From Candidatus Woesearchaeota archaeon (lineage in GTDB: Archaea > Nanobdellota > Nanobdellia > Pacearchaeales > GW2011-AR1): a stretch of 64,000 nucleotides of DNA. The stretch covers positions 141,180 to 205,179 of the forward strand of contig CAYJQB010000001.1 in NCBI GenBank assembly GCA_964372205.1, given 5' to 3'. Positions 4,551 through 60,567 of this stretch are shown piece by piece. The notes below the pieces were generated by a model, which was not told the DNA's origin, did not search any database, and saw only the letters and a program-made list of their open reading frames with translations. Both the position numbers and the translations under genes were made by a program. Numbering within the stretch: position 1 is the stretch's first letter; every line of letters begins with the position of its first letter.

Positions 4551-4622
4551 TGGGAGCGGAGGGAATCGAACCCCCGACACCACGAGCTTCAGTCGTGTGC
4601 TCTCCCACTGAGCTACGCTCCC
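4551..4622 (-). tRNA. tRNA-Phe (GAA)
   Basis: Reverse complement reads GGGAGCGUAGCUCAGUGGGAGAGCACACGACUGAAGCUCGUGGUGUCGGGGGUUCGAUUCCCUCCGCUCCCA. It folds as a cloverleaf with anticodon loop CUGAAGC (GAA) and a T-loop GGUUCGAUUCC. No CCA is encoded. Confidence 0.85.
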
Positions 4623-4727: not shown

Positions 4728-5336
4728 ATGAATGACAGAGCGATAGAGCCTTGGATGGCTCAAGTTCTAGAGCAGGCAAGACATTTGAGTGTATATTCTA
4801 TTAGTCCAGTACCTGTTACTGAAAAACCTCTGCCTATGAATGGAACTGTATTTACAGCGAGTTTTCCCGAAGGAGCTCGAGGAGGAATAGGTGCAGAGTT
4901 ACTAGTTCATCCATTAGATAATGTATTCAGAAGATATAAAGGGCACGTGAATCTAGGCCGTCCTAATGATTTCATAGAGGATAATAATCTACTCAGAGGA
5001 ATTCGACCAGGTAGTTTCGGGAGATTTGTTATTTCAGATTATGACTTAGGCACAGCTCATTCAGTTACAGATAGAAATTGGTATCATGCAAGATTATTAA
5101 GACTTGCAAACAGAAGTGATATAGGGAGACAAGTAGTAGTAAGCCCAAATGATTTTGAGATGTTAGTAACATCTGCTATAGCAGAAAATCAAAGCCAAAC
5201 AGGTTTCGAGAGAGCACGAATTTTTGATGGAGTTATCAGCGCAGACTATCAGGCATTATTAGAATTGCCCTTGGAAAGAGTATGCAGAGTTTACAAACTT
5301 CTAAAAGGAATTCCCACCGAAGAAGAAAATTTGTGA
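4728..5336 (+). CDS. hypothetical protein, compositionally atypical (R/G/A-rich, about 40% GC)
   Basis: 202-aa ORF between tRNA-Phe and the RNase P RNA. Amino-acid composition differs from the K/I/N/E-rich local norm. No motif recognised. Confidence 0.4.
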   Translation: MNDRAIEPWMAQVLEQARHLSVYSISPVPVTEKPLPMNGTVFTASFPEGARGGIGAELLVHPLDNVFRRYKGHVNLGRPNDFIEDNNLLRGIRPGSFGRFVISDYDLGTAHSVTDRNWYHARLLRLANRSDIGRQVVVSPNDFEMLVTSAIAENQSQTGFERARIFDGVISADYQALLELPLERVCRVYKLLKGIPTEEENL

Positions 5337-5340
5337 GTCA

Positions 5341-5660
5341 GGATTAGGCCAGGTTCTGTCAAACTCCGTTTCTTTAGAATCCAATTTTGGACTCTTAGGC
5401 GGACAGTTTGTGCTGACATCTTTCTAAGCGTGCGGCTTCGGCACTTGCATCAGCGAAGGTGCTCGTTTCATCAAATCCATTGCTTCTTAGCTCTCCTCAA
5501 GGTTCATAGCTCAGCAAAGGCTGTGGCGTTTCTGTAACAGAGCTCTGCCTCACGACAGGCCATTTTCATAGCTCGCCCGACGTTATCCTAAGATAACGGA
5601 TGCCCGGACCTTCCTCAGAATTTAGAACTCATGTTTCAGTTCTTGCCAATTCAATGGCCA
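5341..5660 (-). ncRNA. rnpB: RNase P RNA (archaeal type A-like)
   Basis: GC-rich non-coding region. On the minus strand P1 is GGAUUUGGCC (5651-5660) pairing with GGCCUAAUCC (5341-5350). A P3 hairpin AGAACUGAAACAUGAGUUCU is followed by the CR-I-like GAGGAAGGUCCGGGC. A GGCAG...AACGCC segment resembles bacterial GGGCAGGUAACGCC. The 3' side carries the CR-IV/V-like GACAGAACCUGGCC (compare ACAGAACCCGGCUUA). Confidence 0.65.
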
Positions 5661-5737
5661 AATCCCGAAGTCAGCTTCCCGACTCACTTAAAATCTTATA
5701 GAAAAGGGTTTTTAAATATAACTTTCTAAGCAACAAC

Positions 5738-6148
5738 ATGAAACAAGAGGTGCAACCAAAAAAAAGATTATGTAATCTCCTTACAATTGTAATCTTCTTA
5801 ATCTTCTTGGTGATACCTTTAGTTTTCTTTTACGCGCTTAATTTAGAGCAGAACACTGGATTCGGACTTAAAGAAATATCTTCTTCAGTCGCAATAGCTC
5901 TCTTAGTAACTGCTTTTCTTGTATGGATGAAAACTCTTCTAATAAAGAACTCTTATTTGGGACTGGCATCATCATTATTTGCATTGGGAATATTAACTTA
6001 CTCGTTCTGGACTCAATACAGGGGACCTAAAACAGCAATGTTCCTTCTCATTTTCTCAATAGTTTATTTGGTGTATGTAGGTTATTGTTTTTTACACTAC
6101 AGAAAGTTAGACAAGAAAAATGCTTACGATTATGAAGACAATTTATAA
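5738..6148 (+). CDS. integral membrane protein (four predicted TM helices), hypothetical
   Basis: 136-aa hydrophobic ORF. Confidence 0.4.
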   Translation: MKQEVQPKKRLCNLLTIVIFLIFLVIPLVFFYALNLEQNTGFGLKEISSSVAIALLVTAFLVWMKTLLIKNSYLGLASSLFALGILTYSFWTQYRGPKTAMFLLIFSIVYLVYVGYCFLHYRKLDKKNAYDYEDNL

Positions 6149-6583
6149 TTCTTCATCTTCATCTTCATCAAAATAGTCTTGTTCGTCAATACCTTTGTCT
6201 CCCCCTAACATTCTCCCAATAGTTTTAATCGCTGAATCTTCTGTACGACCTTCATAGCCACTTTCAAGCTCTACAATCACAATTCCACTACAAAGATGAG
6301 GAGTTATCTGAACAAAGGGGTATAATAAGTCTCCCCTAGATGCTAGGAGATGTCGAGAAAATATTCTTCCAGTATCTCTTGCAATCTGAATATCTCTATT
6401 TCTATTCGATTTATCTGGAGGAAAAAATCTGTCTTTCTCATGTCTCAATGGAGCTGCAAACTCTTCATAAACTCCGGAGGCTCTAATTTCATCAGAAGGC
6501 AAAAGACCTATAAGTCTTCCATCGTACCGATAGTAGGTTATTCTACCTCTTTCATCTACACTTAGGATTTCAACTTCGTCCAT
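6143..6583 (-). CDS. hypothetical protein with acidic C-terminal tail
   Basis: 146-aa ORF ending DEQDYFDEDEDEEL. R/G-rich atypical composition. Confidence 0.35.
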   Translation of the reverse strand: MDEVEILSVDERGRITYYRYDGRLIGLLPSDEIRASGVYEEFAAPLRHEKDRFFPPDKSNRNRDIQIARDTGRIFSRHLLASRGDLLYPFVQITPHLCSGIVIVELESGYEGRTEDSAIKTIGRMLGGDKGIDEQDYFDEDEDEEL

Positions 6584-6677: not shown

Positions 6678-6704
6678 TTTTTATTTCTTAAGATTCTAAA
6701 TGTG

Positions 6705-9700
6705 GCTTTTAGTAGTTGCATGCTTAAACACTCGCCGAAGCTCGCGTCTTACACACCAACTCTATCAACGCAATCTTCTTTTGCGGCCTATGTTGTCTCG
6801 TCTTGCGGATGGCTTCGTGCTTAGATGCTTTCAGCACTTATCCATACAATGCGTAGCTGCGCGGCCTGCTCATAACAACCGCTCACCAGAGGCATCCAAG
6901 TCAGGTTCCTCTCGTACTACTGACTCGTTCCACTCAGACAACTGCGCGCCTAGTAGATATCATACAAACTGTCTCGCGACGTTCTTAACCCAGCTAACGA
7001 TCCCTTTTAATGCGTGAACTCCGACACCCTTGGCTGCCTATACACAGCCAGGATAGGAAGAGCCGACAGCGATGTACCAAACCGCGCCGTCAATATGGAC
7101 TATCGGGCGCGACAAGCCTGTTATCCTTGGAGTACCTTTTCTGTCACACACGAGCCCTATTAAAAAGCTACGTGGGGTCGCTAGGCCCGACTTTCATCTC
7201 TGCATCCCTTGCTGTTCAGAATACAGTCAGACAAGCTTTTGCCCTCGCACTCTACTCCAGATTTCCAACCTGGATGAGCTTGTCTTTAGGCCCTACAGAT
7301 ATCTTTTCTGCAGGGTGCCGCCCCAGCCAAACTGCCCGCCTGCTGCTGTCCCCATGTAGAGTTAGCAACCTCAAGAAAAATGAGTGGTATTACACCGTTG
7401 CTCCGCTTGCCCCAAAAGACAAGCATCGACGCTCCCACTTATTCTATGCACTCTCCTCGAGATCACAACAACAGGTTGCAGTAAAGGTTCACAAGGTCTC
7501 CGCTTCCCACTAGGCGACGATGGCATTTTCACCATCAAGTGTGTTCAGAAGGTCCTGGTTAGGGACAGTAACCACCTCGTTAAACCATTCATGCACGTCG
7601 CCATTCAGACGACAAGGCATTACGCTCATTTGTGTTAACTTTATATCGCTATAAAGATCGGAACATATCTTCACAAACTAATGTGTCGAGCGTATGTCCT
7701 CTGAGGATTCTTCTTTAGAAGTCTTTCCTGCTGATTGTCCGCAATTTTGGATTGTTACACTTTGGTACCAAAATATACTCGGATATTCCAGCATATAGCT
7801 CGATTTTCTCTATTTTGTTTATCTATTTATCAATTATCTATGAAGCCTAGAGCGTACAATTTTACAATTGTCCGTAAGGCAGTTTAGTTGTCTATTCAAC
7901 CTTAAGAGCCTCATAGTTAGGCCCGCCGTTTGGTGGGTCTTAGCTCCCTTGAAAAGAAGTTTGAAACACCACTACTGGGCAGGTCTCACTGAGTATACCA
8001 GTCCTTTCGGATTTGCACTCAGCTACGTTTTTGATAAACAGTCGGGCGGTCCTTGTCACTGCGATCTACAACCGCGCTCTTGCGAGACGGTTATAGACAC
8101 CCCTCATACCGAAGATACAGGGCTAACTTGCCGAGTTCCCTTAACCAGTTTGTCCTTTCACGCCTTAGCCTTCTCAGCTAGAGCACCAGTGTCGGTTCTG
8201 GGTACGGCTACTTACACACTATGCACAAACTTTTCACGGGCCCCCGGAATCAACAAATTTCTCCTGCAATATTCTTCTGCTTCTTATCATTACGATCCAC
8301 AGATTTCTACTGCAAAGCATCCTTTCGGATACCTGCTTATCCCGAAGCGATTTCGTGCACTAAACGTCTGTAAGTAGTTCCGGAATATTAACCGGATGTC
8401 CATTCGCCATGCTCAGTTAAGGCATGACTTAGGTGCCGACTAACCCTTGGTTAAACGATATAGCCAAGGAAACCTTACTCTTACGGCGCTACCCGTTCTC
8501 AGGGTAATCTGATCTTACTTTCGCCAAGATTTTCATTGGATCCCGCTCCACCCTTCCTCGCAGAAAAGCTTCTACGCAGAATCCACGCCTGCCTACCCGA
8601 ACACTCTTACGAGTGCCGGCAAAGTATCGGTAATATGCTTAGCCCCGTCCATTTTCGGGGCCTCAAACCTCAATAGGTGAGCTGTTACGCTTTCTTTAAA
8701 TGGTGGCTGCTTCTGAGCCTACATCCCCACTGTCTCAGGTTTAAGACACCCTTTGTTACACTTAGCATATATTTTGGGACCTTAACTTTGCTCTCCGTTG
8801 TTTCGGTCTTCGAACAGTACCTTACGCACTGCCCGCCACTCTTGTTTTACGCAATCCACAGGTTCAGAGTTGGAAGAGGTTCCGTAATCTTTCGATCCTG
8901 CGAACCCTATCCGTACTTTACCCCGCCAATCAACTAAACAAGGCTATACTGAGGCATATTTCGGCAGGAACCAGCCATCGCCGGACTAGATAGGCTTTTC
9001 ACCCCTAACCGTAAGTCATACAAGTACATGCATATAACACTGCTTCGGCCTTCCATTCTCCTTTCGGAAAACTTCAGCCTGCTCACGATTAGATCGTCCG
9101 GCTTCGGGTCATAACCAAGTGACTTGCGCCCTTTCAGACTCGCTTTCGCTACGGCTTCAATTTAACCTCGCCACTTAGTTATACTCCTTGGCTCATTTTT
9201 CGAAACGCACGTTGCAACACCGTAATGCCGCAACCATCGTGTAACTAGTAGATTTCAAGTCTTTTCAATCTCGTCTAAGAGTACTTTTCAGCTTTCCCTC
9301 GCGGTACTAAGTTCACTATCGGACTTGGATCAATATTTAGGGTTAGGTGTTAATCCACCCATATTCAGACTTCCAATCCAGGAAGCCCTACTCTCTCGAG
9401 CAGCGACATATTGTCTTAAGGTACGGGACTATCACCCTCTGTGATGTGCCGTTCCAGGCAACTTCCCCTCGACAACTTAGCCACTTTACTCACCACATCT
9501 CTGCCTTCTTTTCAAAAGGAGATTCGGTTTGCCCTGTTCCCTTTTCGCTCGCTGCTAATGGGGGAATCACAATTGTTTTCTTTTCCTACCGGTACTAAGA
9601 TGTTTCAATTCCCGGCGTATGCTTGCCTCTCGGCATTCTCTAAAGAGAACGTTCTCGTATTCGGAAATCTTTGGTTCAAAGCCCGCATGCGGCTCGCCAA

Positions 9701-9778
9701 AGCTTATCGCAGCTTGCCACGTCCTTCATCACGATCCAAACCAAGCTATCCATCTACTAGCTCAAATATAATCAGATT
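6705..9778 (-). rRNA. rrl: 23S ribosomal RNA
   Basis: Conserved 23S blocks appear as reverse complements: the sarcin-ricin loop GGTTCCTCTCGTACTA (6905-6920); GGATAACAGGCTTGTCG (revcomp at 7110-7127); GGATAAGTGCTGAAAGCATCTAAGCACGAAGCC (about 6815-6850); and the 5' domain GGATCGTGATGAAGGACGTGGCAAGC (revcomp at 9711-9736). Ends are approximate, within about 30 nt. Confidence 0.85.
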
Positions 9779-10150: not shown

Positions 10151-10408
10151 TTAATCAGAAACAGTAAAGTCAACGACTCCTCTGCCTAAATCTGTTTCAT
10201 AAAGAGGATTTACTTTTTGCATTTGCACACCCCTTATTCTAGACAAAGCTGTAACTTCTCCTTCAGTCCTGCCTATTACTAATCCAGACACAGAAGTAGA
10301 ATTTCCTCTCGCATCAACTTTAATTCCTTCTACTCTGTAAGCGTAATTGCGTCCATCATTCCCAGTAGGCATACTAGAATGTGCAGAGTATCTTTGCCTA
10401 TCAACCAT
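10151..10408 (-). CDS. hypothetical protein encoded in the tRNAAla-23S spacer (ITS ORF D)
   Basis: 85 aa, same strand as the rRNAs, protein-like non-repetitive sequence, about 40% GC. No family recognised. Confidence 0.4.
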   Translation of the reverse strand: MVDRQRYSAHSSMPTGNDGRNYAYRVEGIKVDARGNSTSVSGLVIGRTEGEVTALSRIRGVQMQKVNPLYETDLGRGVVDFTVSD

Positions 10409-10489: not shown

Positions 10490-10849
10490 CTATTTAGATC
10501 TCGAAGGTTTCATGTTTCTTTGGTTAAGGATTTCAGCATGTTTTATAGAATCTTCCAAATTTTCTTCAGATACTCTAACAAAAGGCACAATTCTTTTTCT
10601 TAAGCTTTTTTCTACCAATGCAAGAAATACACTTTCAGGATTAGTTTCGTGAGCAACACGAGCAGGGAAAGGAACCCAAATATAATTCCCTTCATCATCT
10701 GTATATCTCAGAGCTCTTCCAGCAGTGGAATCTGATTCATTAAATTCAACTTGTGGCAATCCTCTCCAAACTTCCCAATAATTCACTCCTCTCATTGCAT
10801 TTCTTTCTGTTTCACCAGGAGAATAAACTAAATTATTTTCGTTATCCAT
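10490..10849 (-). CDS. hypothetical protein encoded in the tRNAAla-23S spacer (ITS ORF C)
   Basis: 119 aa, co-oriented with the rRNAs. Its start codon is 8 nt downstream of the tRNA-Ala 3' end. Confidence 0.4.
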   Translation of the reverse strand: MDNENNLVYSPGETERNAMRGVNYWEVWRGLPQVEFNESDSTAGRALRYTDDEGNYIWVPFPARVAHETNPESVFLALVEKSLRKRIVPFVRVSEENLEDSIKHAEILNQRNMKPSRSK

Positions 10850-10970: not shown

Positions 10971-11270
10971 CTACACAACTTCTAAAATTTGATAATGATA
11001 ACTAACAGACTTATCTCTCGTAACATAGAATCCTATCCTACAACCATTAACATCTTCTCTTTCTTCAGAGTCTATTCTCTCCAGAGCTGAAGCAAATATC
11101 TCTTCCGCAATTTTTATAAAACTATTATCACGTCCTGATAACACTCTTAAGCTTCCGTCAGATGAAATTTCTGCAATATATTTTACATCTTTAATAATTC
11201 TAGTTCCACTTTCAGGAGAGCGTCTAAAACGCACACTCCAAAAATAATCCTCAGTTTCTTTAGCCATCAA
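10971..11270 (-). CDS. hypothetical protein encoded in the 16S-tRNAAla spacer (ITS ORF B)
   Basis: 99 aa, co-oriented with the rRNAs. No family recognised. Confidence 0.4.
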   Translation of the reverse strand: MMAKETEDYFWSVRFRRSPESGTRIIKDVKYIAEISSDGSLRVLSGRDNSFIKIAEEIFASALERIDSEEREDVNGCRIGFYVTRDKSVSYHYQILEVV

Positions 11271-11299: not shown

Positions 11300-11590
11300 T
11301 TACGCTTTATCAATTTCACTTCTTGAATAAGCTCTTCCTGATTCGAGAGAAGTTCTTCCTTCTTGAACTATATCTCCCTGGATTTGTATCCTATCTCTTT
11401 CAGCATACTCCTTAGCATCTCTTTCGGATTTTGCAGAATAAAACCAAGTTCTATACTCTCCATCAGTAGGTCTCTCTCCGTCTTGTGAAGGTTTGAATCC
11501 TTTCACTGTAAAAACAAAATTAGGCATCTCTCTTCTTCCGGCAGCTCTCTCTATAGGACAGCTTTTTGTAGGGTATGGATTAATTGCCAT
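11300..11590 (-). CDS. hypothetical protein encoded in the 16S-tRNAAla spacer (ITS ORF A)
   Basis: 96 aa, co-oriented with the rRNAs. Its start is about 34 nt downstream of the 16S 3' processing-stem half. Confidence 0.4.
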   Translation of the reverse strand: MAINPYPTKSCPIERAAGRREMPNFVFTVKGFKPSQDGERPTDGEYRTWFYSAKSERDAKEYAERDRIQIQGDIVQEGRTSLESGRAYSRSEIDKA

Positions 11591-11669: not shown

Positions 11670-13112
<1,443 letters not shown>

Positions 13113-23032: not shown

Positions 23033-23404
23033 TCATTCAGGACACTCTCCAGCCGTCCAAAATTCAATATCTTCATCAAGACAAGCCACACAGCTATTCT
23101 CAAATGTTTGCGCACAAGGGTACTTTATACACTGGACTTTTGTAGAACTAAACCACCCACAAACAGGAGAGTATATCTCATCACAAGCTTGTACATTCCT
23201 GCTTTCAGAACTGCAGTAAGTTTTATTTTCTATTTCAGGGCAAGTATCAAACTCACAATTATTACTAGCATTCCTTCCCACAGCACTTCCATCAGGACAT
23301 ATTTTTGCTTCCATAGTACACGCAATCTGAATGCCTTTCTGGAAAAAATAAGCTCCAATAAGGAATACAATCACAATCACTAGAATAATAATATCTTTTC
23401 TCAT
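23033..23404 (-). CDS. membrane-anchored secreted Cys-rich protein with Kazal-like (YSPVCG) domain
   Basis: N-terminal TM helix, then CDEIYSPVCG ... TFENSCVAC, which resembles the Kazal inhibitor core C-x3-Y-x-PVCG ... TY-x-N-x-C-x2-C with an insertion. Confidence 0.4.
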   Translation of the reverse strand: MRKDIIILVIVIVFLIGAYFFQKGIQIACTMEAKICPDGSAVGRNASNNCEFDTCPEIENKTYCSSESRNVQACDEIYSPVCGWFSSTKVQCIKYPCAQTFENSCVACLDEDIEFWTAGECPE

Positions 23405-23673
23405 TTCTTCTCTAGGCCTTTTAAAGTTCCTGAAACTTTAAGCACTTGAATCTTATCAGAAGCAATAGCAAAACTCCCTATAACCTTATCTATCTCACTT
23501 CGTTCTATCGCAAGAACAACAGTTCCTTCCTTCTTTTTCACAAATACAGGTGCTGATTTAGCATACCCTAATATTCCCACATATTCAAGAATAGCTCTCT
23601 TCACAGATTTTTCGTTACCTCTTATTAAGAGATATCTTTTTTTTGATCTGGCAGAAGGTTTTAATTTTGGCAT
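23401..23673 (-). CDS. RNase P protein subunit Pop5/Rpp14 (Rnp2)-like
   Basis: KKRYLLIRG near the N-terminus and the VSGTLKGL motif near the C-terminus, characteristic of Pop5. At 90 aa it is shorter than typical Pop5. Confidence 0.55.
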   Translation of the reverse strand: MPKLKPSARSKKRYLLIRGNEKSVKRAILEYVGILGYAKSAPVFVKKKEGTVVLAIERSEIDKVIGSFAIASDKIQVLKVSGTLKGLEKK

Positions 23674-38656: not shown

Positions 38657-39058
38657 TTATATATCTTTCTCTCCAGAATCGCTAAGGTCTATTATATATT
38701 TTCCATCCTCAAGTTTGTAGACAAGAGGTCTTTCTCCTCTGAAAAGCTTATGCAAATCAAGAAGATACTTTCCAGGTTTCAGGATTTTTATGCTTTCAAA
38801 ATCAAGAACAATTGGAGTCTCTTCCTCTTCATTCACACCAACAATATCTCTCACATCTTTCTCTATCTGTCTTAGTTCATTATTTGTAAGTTCAACTTCT
38901 TCATCTTTTGTCTGTTTTAACTTCTCAAGTTTTTCATTGCTTATATAGAAGAAGAATCTGCTTCCACACTTGCTACACCCTTTTAAGATTTCCTCTGAAC
39001 CATCGTCGTAAATCTCGGAGCAGTGAACACATTTATGTGGCATATAATTCCCACACAA
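38657..39058 (-). CDS. Zn-ribbon protein (C-x2-C ... C-x2-C)
   Basis: HKCVHCSEIYDDGSEEILKGCSKCGSRFFF at the N-terminus. It is the last gene of the GTPase triad. Confidence 0.4.
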   Translation of the reverse strand: MCGNYMPHKCVHCSEIYDDGSEEILKGCSKCGSRFFFYISNEKLEKLKQTKDEEVELTNNELRQIEKDVRDIVGVNEEEETPIVLDFESIKILKPGKYLLDLHKLFRGERPLVYKLEDGKYIIDLSDSGEKDI

Positions 39059-39080
39059 AGAAGATTAATAAATTTAGTTA

Positions 39081-39485
39081 TCATCCAAGCATTACTTCAA
39101 GCTTGCTAGGGTCTTTCTTAATCTCCCTTACTATAGAAGCAGGTCCTATGACTGTAAGGGAATTATGATATCCAACAAGTGATTTCGCTATGCCCTTTTT
39201 CAATTTATGTATTAAACCTTGATCTCTCATATCTGGCTCAATGACTGCAAGCTCTATACCCCTAAAGTTCTTTACATGATCTACCATAGCCATTGTGTCT
39301 TCAATAAGTCTTATCTCTTCTTCAACTCTTAATCTACCTTGAAGAATTATGACTCTATTGCTCAAGATAATCTTCAAGATTTTTTTCACTCTCTCATTTA
39401 TTGACAAATCTCTCACTTCAGAAAATGGAATTATCTGTAGACTAAGTCCTTTTATTTTCGATATCTTTCCGTTCTTTTTCACCAT
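39081..39485 (-). CDS. conserved hypothetical protein (middle gene of GTPase/Zn-ribbon triad)
   Basis: 134 aa. The gene order resembles a conserved archaeal GTPase-DUF-Zn-ribbon operon, but that is recalled from memory and unverified. Confidence 0.35.
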   Translation of the reverse strand: MVKKNGKISKIKGLSLQIIPFSEVRDLSINERVKKILKIILSNRVIILQGRLRVEEEIRLIEDTMAMVDHVKNFRGIELAVIEPDMRDQGLIHKLKKGIAKSLVGYHNSLTVIGPASIVREIKKDPSKLEVMLG

Positions 39486-60197: not shown

Positions 60198-60231
60198 TAA
60201 AATTTCACAAATCTAAACTTTATAAGAATAG

Positions 60232-60490
60232 TGTAGGCGGGGAGATTGCTCAGCTTCAGCTTGCTGGCTACCTTCCAGCCTTCCTCAACTTTGCACCCCT
60301 ATAAGCACCGAAACTTCTGTTTAGGGCTGCTCCGATCAAGGCCTGACCCTTTTCACAGGAGTACGGTCGAACAGGACAAAGCGTCAACGTCCGGCGGAAG
60401 ACCAAAAAGCCTCCACATCACGCACTCCTTTAAGCCTGCCATAAAGCCCATTTGCAGATAGCGCAGGGCTAGCGCGCCAGCTTGCCTACA
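60232..60490 (-). ncRNA. GC-rich structured RNA candidate, most consistent with SRP (7S) RNA; strand uncertain
   Basis: About 52% GC and non-coding, between divergent genes. Terminal pairing UGUAGGC (60232-60238) with GCCUACA (60484-60490). The minus strand has GGUCAGGCC-UUGAUC-GGAGCAGCC, which resembles the SRP RNA domain IV motif GGUCAGGUCC-GGAA-GGAAGCAGCC. It also has two 5' hairpins (GCGC-UAGCCCU-GCGC and CUUUA-UGGCAGGCU-UAAAG) whose loops are complementary (AGCC/GGCU), like Alu-domain helices 3 and 4. Confidence 0.35.
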
Positions 60491-60567
60491 TAGTTCTCAT
60501 TCCCTCAGACTTTTTAAAGCCTTTCATACAACAAAGGGCTTAAATAACCAAATTTGTCAGTTGGGAA

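Follow-up and report, generated by a model that had tools for sequence, protein, structure and literature searches.

RNase P is the ribozyme responsible for trimming tRNAs at their 5′ ends. A survey from 2026, covering 298 archaeal RNase P RNAs, found P19 to be widespread and the loss of P16 and P17 frequent, with module losses generally occurring in the absence of added expansion segments, and with very reduced RNAs in the Nanopusillaceae, where P2 and P3 are missing (PMC12974513). In the cryo-EM structure of the Methanocaldococcus jannaschii enzyme, Pop5 lies on the P2/P3 junction and holds CR-IV, the small P15 loop carries no CCA-recognition element, and a P19 stem in the P2-P4 linker, as found in yeast and human, would run into the other RNA of the archaeal dimer (PMC6565675). 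The P12 of type A RNAs, like that of type M RNAs, contains a double K-turn to which L7Ae binds (PMC5499556). Our search of the literature returned no paper specifically on the RNase P RNA of Pacearchaeota or Woesearchaeota.

We analyzed a 64-kb window, meaning the whole stretch of 64,000 nucleotides of a Candidatus Woesearchaeota archaeon, in which positions 5333-5687 of the minus strand match Rfam family RF00373 along the entire model (positions 1-288 of 288) with 105.9 bits, above the gathering score of 84, and an E-value of 1.4e-28. This is the covariance-model search that had been suggested by an earlier reading made from the letters of the window (hereafter the sequence-only reading), and it bears out the RNase P RNA gene proposed there, of archaeal kind. 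The gene and the features around it are:

5333-5687, minus strand: RNase P RNA gene, 355 nt, placed by the RF00373 match, P1 covariation, and the promoter and T-run
5709-5716, minus strand: TATA box UUUAAAAA, preceded by an A-rich, BRE-like stretch
5320-5329, minus strand: T-rich run UUUUCUUCUU, a likely transcription terminator
4551-4622, minus strand: tRNA-Phe(GAA), with its own TATA box and no encoded CCA
6690-9777: 23S rRNA gene, with the RNase P RNA gene about 1 kb downstream of it
11670-13112: rRNA gene

We assign a probability of roughly 95% to the reading that 5333-5687 is the gene for the RNase P RNA subunit of a DPANN archaeon of Pacearchaeota/Woesearchaeota type, with a two-domain fold and its own promoter. 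As a housekeeping gene it is ordinary, and it adds one more member, detected above threshold by the existing model, to a known family. With a GC content of 0.48 (0.375 for the window), no ORF of at least 60 aa inside it, and a minimum free energy 3.6 standard scores below shuffles (z-score -3.6), the stretch is indeed the GC-rich, non-coding, minus-strand segment that had been described, although its extent is 5333-5687 and not 5341-5660.

Relatives were collected by a DNA search of a genome collection with a pattern of CR-I, CR-II and CR-III (GAGGAAGGTCC...CAGAAACG...GATGAAAC); since all three are fixed in the pattern, their conservation among the relatives is by construction. The pattern matched 119 loci, nearly all in Pacearchaeota, Woesearchaeota or Nanoarchaeota MAGs, and the closest species representatives show 74-79% RNase P RNA identity. 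A sister genome (GCA_053534795.1, locus L120), reached via a neighbouring protein, has a 94%-identical RNase P RNA in the same gene order. Full-length homologs were trimmed by P1 pairing, 65 of them were aligned with the window sequence (66 sequences altogether) by MAFFT, which is blind to structure, and pairs were counted on this alignment for a structure model built by hand. Standard pairs occupied 92.8% of 6307 cells compared with 72.2% in shuffles, and double-sided (compensatory) changes were seen in 86 of 102 pairs. The covariation score was 0.594 versus 0.219 in shuffles, none of 500 shuffles reached it, and it dropped to 0.07-0.14 once the partners were slid by 1-3 columns. Helices supported by the pair counts were P1, P2, P3, P3a, P3b, P4, P5, P7, P8, P9, P10/11, P12, P15 and P19; RNAalifold, blind to the hand-built model, recovered P1, P3a, P3b, P4, P5, P7, P8, P9, P11, P12, P15 and P19. 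Covariation thus shows a two-domain RNase P fold, and the compensatory substitutions that separate the window RNA from its sister in P8 and P19 show that the RNA changes under structural constraint between sister species. Had the locus been a chance GC-rich structured spacer, or some other structured RNA resembling RNase P RNA, the raised GC content would be explained and nothing more; a full-length covariance-model match at E 1.4e-28 and 86 pairs covarying in the RNase P arrangement, P4 pseudoknot included, make such an origin vanishingly improbable.

The ends of the RNase P RNA gene were set by the covariation of P1, together with the conserved promoter and T-run. The two strands of this helix are:

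5677-5687, minus strand: P1 5′ strand GUGAGUCGGGA, partner of 5333-5343
5333-5343, minus strand: P1 3′ strand UCCUGACUCAC, partner of 5677-5687

P1 is 93.6% paired, with compensatory changes in 9 of its 11 pairs, and RNAalifold finds the same helix independently. The TATA box and T-run signals fit the ends indicated by P1 and Rfam. The sequence-only reading had mentioned this helix as a possible extended P1, with coordinates 6 nt off: GUGAGUC lies at 5681-5687, and 5675-5681 reads CGGGAAG. Its expectation that the extended helix would overlap the stop codon of ORF 4728-5336 holds, the last 4 nt of the P1 3′ strand overlapping the TGA (5334-5336) of this convergent, opposite-strand ORF, and the same 4-nt overlap is kept in the sister genome. 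As the main P1, it had favoured a 10-bp pairing of GGAUUUGGCC (5665-5656) with GGCCUAAUCC (5350-5341), closing a shorter RNA (5341-5660 or 5341-5665) for which the outer GUGAGUC/GACUCAC pairing would be optional. Both decamers are present and 9/10 complementary in the window sequence, yet across the 66 sequences their pairing stays at shuffle level (61.0% of cells paired versus 60.6%; covariation score 0.122 versus 0.119), with only 2 pairs double-changed. The same nucleotides are taken by well-supported helices, those of GGAUUUGGCC, on the 5′ side, by P3 and P3a and those of GGCCUAAUCC, on the 3′ side, by the 3′ strand of P4 and the beginning of the true P1, and the promoter spacing puts the start at GUGAGU. 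We consider the shorter RNA highly improbable and retain the gene of 355 nt closed by the outer helix.

The catalytic domain is made up of P1, P2, a P3 that forks, the P4 pseudoknot and its bulged U, P5, a P15 reduced to a bare hairpin, and a long P19. Its elements other than P1, listed in transcript order together with the hairpin of the P5/P7 junction and with CR-IV, are:

5670-5675, minus strand: P2 5′ strand GCUGAC, partner of 5412-5417
5616-5667, minus strand: forked P3, 52 nt, an 8-bp stem with P3a and P3b, from the covariation of helices 3-5
5645-5658, minus strand: P3a hairpin, loop UUGAAU
5624-5643, minus strand: P3b hairpin
5602-5616, minus strand: CR-I GAGGAAGGUCCGGGC, from the Rfam alignment; P4 5′ strand at 5611-5603, bulged U at 5608
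5581-5598, minus strand: 7-bp hairpin in the P5/P7 junction (P5.1 position), CGUUAUC-UUAG-GAUAACG
5430-5444, minus strand: P15, 15 nt, a 4-bp hairpin with a 7-nt loop, GUGC-CGAAGCC-GCAC
5418-5429, minus strand: CR-IV / J15-2 GCUUAGAAAGAU, with G259, C260, A263, G264, A269 and U270 invariant
5412-5417, minus strand: P2 3′ strand GUCAGC, partner of 5670-5675
5360-5410, minus strand: P19, a long hairpin of 51 nt between the P2 and P4 3′ strands
5344-5359, minus strand: CR-V ACAGAACCUGGCCUAA, from the Rfam alignment; P4 3′ strand at 5346-5353

The helices that close the domain (helices 1-5: P1, P2 and P3) are 89-99% paired with double-sided changes in 31 of 35 pairs. P2 reaches 99.2% pairing with such changes in all 6 pairs, and P3 (helices 3-5) 89-99% with 16 of 18. 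Relative to the Rfam model, P3 appears as a 40-nt insertion; the P3 hairpin of the sequence-only reading exists in a forked form, with P3a and P3b, that contains the 5′ half of the P1 claimed there. The loop of P3a is a near-invariant UUNNAU, in which U34, U35, A38 and U39 are conserved in 61-66 of the 66 sequences, and it may contact Pop5-Rpp30 or another region of the RNA.

CR-I and CR-V pair to give the P4 pseudoknot with its bulged U (99.4% paired, 3 pairs double-changed). Three pairs precede the bulge (A77-U342, G78-C341, G79-C340), and the bulged U80 is followed by C81-G339, C82-G338, G83-U337, G84-C336 and G85-C335. CR-I, which lies at 5616-5602, had been correctly recognized, with a G in place of the A of the bacterial and archaeal consensus. 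This G78 pairs with C341 of CR-V, a pair that is A with U in the Rfam consensus. Of the 114 relatives with CR-V located, all 114 read GGCCUA, CR-V being absent from the search pattern. The G78-C341 pair is thus a lineage-wide compensatory pair, in which A-to-G in CR-I is matched by U-to-C in CR-V. The conserved block that had been noted near the 3′ end is CR-V itself (5359-5344), directly before the P1 3′ strand.

At the P5.1 position, where the window hairpin is a 13-nt insertion in the Rfam alignment, a stable hairpin of unrelated sequence is found in 37 of 91 relatives, with unconserved loops (UUAG, UUAA, AAAA, GCAA and others). A loop-loop partner for it was considered and rejected: the loops are not conserved. 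One CUAA in P19, a hairpin that few sequences have in extended form, could pair with UUAG. Among the relatives, optional hairpins occur at the P5.1, P13/14 and P18 positions, and the P5.1-position hairpin is commoner in RNAs with an insertion at the P13/14 position (11 of 16 versus 26 of 75; Fisher p 0.02), a count uncorrected for phylogeny, so that we claim no association.

P15 is 95.7% paired with double-sided changes in 4 of 4 pairs. The 34-nt P16/P17 insert of the Rfam model is reduced to 4 nt in the window RNA, so that L15, P16, P17 and the P6 pseudoknot are absent from it by the RF00373 alignment. P19 is found in all 65 aligned relatives (helix 19: 95.8% paired, double-sided changes in 8 of 9 pairs) as a hairpin whose 6-bp base is followed by a conserved GU bulge and a 3-bp stem. 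The window copy has a distal extension as well, and its lengthening to 51 nt is common to a few relatives and the sister genome. For its upper part, a register pairing U285 with 323 was paired in just 50 of 66 sequences and was replaced by the RNAalifold pair 283-323 (CG in 25, UA in 23 and GC in 14; 100% paired), which leaves the GU bulge. At pair 287/321, the C-G of the window is U-A in the sister genome.

The specificity domain comprises P7, P8, P9, P10/11 and P12 with the T-loop sequences of CR-II and CR-III, and is of the type A kind. Its elements are:

5559-5572, minus strand: P8, GCUAU-GAAA-AUGGC with a GAAA loop (helix 11)
5545-5558, minus strand: P9 with a GUGA loop (helix 12)
5464-5544, minus strand: region of P10/11, CR-II, P12 and CR-III (helices 13-17)
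5527-5535, minus strand: CR-II ACAGAAACG
5473-5526, minus strand: P12, with two putative K-turn-like GA/GA motifs at 5485-5512
5464-5472, minus strand: CR-III GAUGAAACG

P8 and P9 are 90.9% and 99.7% paired, with 9 of their 10 pairs double-changed, including all 5 pairs of P8; the P8 of the 94%-identical sister RNA differs from that of the window by two compensatory double changes. P10/11 and P12 are likewise present and covarying; whether P8, P9 and P10-12 exist here had been put forward as a point to check. Both T-loop sequences, ACAGAAACG and GAUGAAACG, were found, and the GGCAG...AACGCC-type block pointed out previously is real, GGCAG...ACAGAAACGCC being the 3′ strand of P9 plus CR-II. P12 has GA dinucleotides at 176-177, 183-184, 195-196 and 202-203; of their positions, G195 is conserved least, in 47 of 66 sequences, and the others are kept in 61-66. 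These dinucleotides surround a covarying 2-bp helix that has 3-nt bulges on opposite strands, a placement that suggests two K-turn-like motifs.

To look for expression signals, 86 loci were anchored at the RAGU of their 5′ ends. A strong TATA box with the consensus UUUAAAAA stands at -31 to -24 from the R (T or A in 63-98% per position), with an A-rich stretch before it and a C-rich stretch after it. The centre of the window's TATA box is about 26 nt upstream of G1, the start of GUGAGU, and about 26 nt is the usual archaeal distance from TATA box to start. A TATA-like element had previously been marked at 5712-5725; the conserved box does exist, at 5716-5709, and overlaps that interval only in part. 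T-runs begin within a few nt after the P1 3′ strand in most of the relatives among the 86 loci.

The proximity to tRNA-Phe and rRNA genes that had been reported was also confirmed. The tRNA-Phe(GAA) gene lies 710 nt further downstream of the RNase P RNA gene and is read from the same strand, an arrangement also seen at 49 of 90 related loci when distances up to 1.3 kb are counted and at 32 when the limit is 400 nt. Both tRNA genes of the window (tRNA-Phe and tRNA-Ala) have their own upstream TATA boxes and do not encode CCA, and the distance of the TATA boxes is consistent with a transcribed 5′ leader that would need removal. ORF 4728-5336, which converges on the RNase P RNA gene, has two close relatives only among 5.8 billion proteins, no match in Pfam, NCBIfam or PHROGs, and no homolog across the 119 related loci; it is a real but orphan gene, without a functional link to RNase P.

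Focusing on the protein subunits, one feature of the window is relevant:

23401-23673, minus strand: Pop5 (RNase P protein component 2) homolog, 90 aa

This ORF scores 22.5 bits against Pfam PF01900, for which the cutoff is 23, and as a single sequence it matches P. furiosus Pop5 in the PDB with E 1.5e-4. It has 55 relatives of about 86-93 aa, mostly in the same archaeal group, and some of these carry PF01900 or the POP5 name. A profile of 32 relatives matches the Pop5 structures 6k0a, 3wz0 and 2av5 (from M. jannaschii, T. kodakarensis and P. furiosus) over positions 2-91 with E-values of 2.7e-10 to 6.7e-10, and this full-length agreement of profile and structures places the ORF in the Pop5/Rpp14 family (PF01900), in line with the Pop5 homolog named in the sequence-only reading. 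The genes psmA and SBDS and the exosome genes Rrp4, Rrp41 and Rrp42 follow it closely, the usual archaeal neighbourhood of the Pop5 gene. The accompanying claim that RNA and protein components of RNase P are both in the window stands for the RNA and for Pop5; Rpp30, Rpp29, Rpp21 and L7Ae were not found in a Pfam scan of approximately 60 window ORFs. Three unassigned ORFs of 230-249 aa, compared with PDB sequences for a divergent Rpp30, gave no match, and the 123-aa ORF between Pop5 and psmA matches no family. Thus, one of the five usual archaeal RNase P proteins is visible in the 64-kb window.

That Pop5 is the sole subunit seen there would also fit a decaying or non-functional relic of an RNase P RNA, with tRNA 5′ processing carried out by another enzyme or unneeded, as in Nanoarchaeum equitans, which is not known to have any RNase P. 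Such a relic would have company in the very reduced RNase P RNAs of some DPANN archaea, such as the Nanopusillaceae without P2 and P3 (PMC12974513). In the window RNA, by contrast, the five conserved regions and the core helices are all intact, as is the bulged U of P4, the helix substitutions relative to the 94%-identical sister are compensatory, the promoter is conserved in 86 loci, and the Pop5 family is conserved in 55 relatives, while the TATA positions of tRNA-Phe and tRNA-Ala would be consistent with a 5′ leader that needs removal. We judge a relic to be very unlikely and keep to a working RNase P RNA.

For this working RNA, we infer both the transcript ends and catalysis from the sequence. 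It would be transcribed from its own archaeal promoter, with TATA box UUUAAAAA about 26 nt upstream of GUGAGU, and transcription would end at the T-run just beyond the P1 3′ strand. The RNA is then predicted to assemble with Pop5 and with partners encoded elsewhere, and to remove 5′ leaders from pre-tRNA together with Pop5, Rpp30, Rpp29, Rpp21 and L7Ae, among which Pop5 alone was found in the window. Three further readings draw on the sequence and on published structures of other species. Base pairing probably plays no part in reading the substrate 3′ end, a trait of the Methanocaldococcus enzyme too, because the tRNA genes here lack CCA and no L15/P16/P17/P6 module is present; the two K-turn-like motifs of P12 are probably L7Ae sites; and the holoenzyme is probably monomeric, since P19 in the P2-P4 linker is predicted to block the Methanocaldococcus two-RNA dimer.

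With this analysis, a DPANN genome gains an RNase P RNA gene with correct boundaries and an annotated structure, at a locus that gene callers leave blank. The analysis also describes a mixed architecture common to the Pacearchaeota/Woesearchaeota radiation, in which P8 and P19 are kept, P15 is cut back and P3 is forked. This may be of use in studies of the trade-off between RNA modules and proteins in RNase P, and of whether P19-bearing archaeal holoenzymes are monomers. A lineage-specific mix of elements is unsurprising given the published surveys, and the understanding of the role of RNase P is unchanged. A bolder reading, which we regard as possible though doubtful, is that the Pacearchaeota/Woesearchaeota RNAs constitute an undescribed archaeal architectural type, in which the loss of L15, P16, P17 and P6 is offset by additions to the RNA and not by proteins alone. 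The additions may include the forked P3, with a UUNNAU P3a loop that could make a new protein or tertiary contact, the universal P19 with its GU bulge, and the P5.1-site hairpin present in about 40% of members. If true, such a type would represent partial convergence on the solution of bacterial type B and a monomeric, eukaryote-like holoenzyme instead of a Methanocaldococcus-type dimer. In the 2026 survey, such archaeal deletions are generally without added expansion segments (PMC12974513).

Compared with type A RNAs (Pyrococcus furiosus, Methanothermobacter thermautotrophicus), the window RNA shares CR-I to CR-V, P1-P5, P7, P8, P9, P10/11, a P12 with GA-rich K-turn-like motifs, the P4 pseudoknot and a score above the RF00373 gathering threshold. 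P8, a type A feature, is present, whereas the type A P15 with L15, P16, P17 and the P6 pseudoknot is not: a 15-nt hairpin replaces P15 and the 34-nt insert. P3 is a short hairpin in the Rfam model, in contrast to the 52-nt fork here, the P5/P7 junction contains a hairpin, 51 nt occupy the P19 site where the Rfam consensus has 4 nt, and the second pair of P4 is G-C in place of the A-U of type A and the Rfam consensus. With type M RNAs (M. jannaschii, Methanococcus maripaludis), the window RNA has in common a small P15 hairpin without a CCA-binding loop, the absence of P16, P17 and P6, tRNA genes without CCA, and paired K-turn-like motifs in P12. Type M lacks P8, however, while P8 covaries strongly here, and the P2-P4 linker holds a P19, for which the cryo-EM study implies a clash with the other RNA of the M. 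jannaschii dimer (PMC6565675). In the published double K-turn, the NC helix of one K-turn is the C helix of the next (PMC5499556); the two GA/GA motifs of the window P12 differ from that module in flanking a shared 2-bp helix on opposite strands.

Bacterial type B RNAs (Bacillus, Geobacillus; RF00011) are alike by position in the loss of P6, P16 and P17, in a hairpin at the P5.1 site and in a P19 between P2 and P4. They differ in their P15.1/P18.0 partner helix and P10.1, both missing from the window RNA: J15-2 is 12 nt long with no P15.1 helix, and the docking of the P5.1 loop on the P15.1 loop (P18.0) therefore has no counterpart. A loop-loop contact of the L5.1 type is not indicated here, because the loop of the junction hairpin is unconserved, and the hairpin itself is found in just 37 of 91 relatives; the protein partners are archaeal, unlike those of type B. 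Eukaryotic nuclear RNase P and RNase MRP RNAs similarly share a P19 between P2 and P4, an enlarged P3 and a reduced P15, yet their P3 is a helix-loop-helix and not a three-way fork, and the P8, P9 and P12 of the window RNA are archaeal in kind. We know of no Pop6/Pop7-type proteins in the Pacearchaeota/Woesearchaeota lineage. Overall, all parts of the window RNase P RNA are of known kinds, and their particular combination is a trait of the lineage.

Across Pacearchaeota and Woesearchaeota loci, the RNase P RNA gene has a gene for tRNA-Phe(GAA) downstream of it, and in this window the genes flanking the RNase P RNA gene on both sides are as follows.

4551-4622, same strand as the RNase P RNA gene: tRNA-Phe(GAA), the downstream neighbour across Pacearchaeota/Woesearchaeota loci
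4728-5336, plus strand: orphan gene of 202 aa inserted downstream of the RNase P RNA gene and ahead of tRNA-Phe, on the strand opposite to both
5738-6148, plus strand, and 6143-6583, minus strand: two small genes that separate the RNase P RNA gene from the 23S gene

Of 90 loci, 49 have the tRNA-Phe(GAA) gene no more than 1.3 kb downstream of the RNase P RNA gene and on its strand, and 32 have it within 400 nt; the gap in related loci is often just 42-72 nt, with a separate TATA box for each gene. Synteny in related loci extends to the downstream genes, which encode a small membrane protein, a 190-aa protein and an NFACT-R protein. The orphan gene at 4728-5336 matched no family in Pfam, NCBIfam or PHROGs and was missing from all 119 related loci recovered by the conserved-region pattern search; just two close relatives were present in the protein collection, one of them in the sister genome (GCA_053534795.1; 82% identity). 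Its TGA stop codon falls within the 3′ strand of RNase P RNA helix P1, in the window and the sister genome alike. On the 23S side, a 136-aa membrane protein with a weak match to DUF2070 is encoded by a gene that adjoins the RNase P RNA gene, in divergent orientation, in about 10 close relatives. The 146-aa open reading frame (ORF) beside it had no Pfam, NCBIfam or PHROG family, and the sister genome has a predicted gene of 145 aa at the matching position.

In the adjacent rRNA gene cluster the spacers on either side of tRNA-Ala are unusually long, measuring 742 nt towards 16S and 1079 nt towards 23S, and they are filled by four ORFs.

10151-10408, 10490-10849, 10971-11270 and 11300-11590, minus strand: four spacer ORFs of 85-119 aa, on the rRNA strand

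Codon usage in these ORFs resembles that of genuine genes, with 0.18-0.29 log-odds per codon and GC3 of about 0.2; spurious antisense ORFs reach at most 0.07 log-odds. None of the four matched a Pfam, NCBIfam or PHROG family, and the sole match to the 119-aa ORF in a search of 5.8 billion proteins was itself. Because tRNA-Ala is preceded by a TATA-like element of its own, AUUAAAAA, the rRNA gene cluster may not be a single transcript. A 5S rRNA gene was not detected in the window (1-64000) at the Rfam gathering threshold, and 5S is therefore unlinked to the 16S-23S cluster here.

Farther from the RNase P RNA gene, we noted the following additional features.

23033-23404, minus strand: 123-aa ORF located ahead of psmA and sharing 4 nt with the end of Pop5
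38657-39485, minus strand: adjacent OapC (E 2.9e-26) and OapB (E 1.6e-14) homologs, with a GTPase next to the pair
60231-60491, minus strand: divergent archaeal SRP RNA of 261 nt (RF01857, 77.8 bits)

The trio of Pop5, the 123-aa ORF and psmA was found on further contigs as well; searches of Pfam, NCBIfam and PHROGs gave no family match for the 123-aa protein, and its position in a Pop5-psmA-exosome cluster suggests a putative role in RNA processing. OapC and OapB are origin-associated proteins, and their homologs here may mark a nearby replication origin. The SRP RNA scores below the RF01857 gathering score of 96.5 and is without a 40-nt segment of the model; at the gathering threshold its core alone (60287-60383) is reported, as Bacteria_small_SRP with 41.1 bits. 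The ORF at 60246-60461 on the opposite strand is probably spurious.

Returning to RNase P RNA itself, some relatives carry one or two additional hairpins between CR-III and the 3′ strand of P10, the position of bacterial P13/P14, and some carry, in addition or instead, hairpins between CR-IV and the 3′ strand of P2, the position of P18. With hairpins at either position or both (loci L002, L080, L099, L023, L112, L074, L009, L013, L036, L015, L063, L103 and L114 of the pattern search), these RNAs reach lengths of up to 492 nt. The RNase P RNA of the Pacearchaeota/Woesearchaeota lineage is modular, with optional hairpins at the positions of bacterial P13/P14 and of P18.
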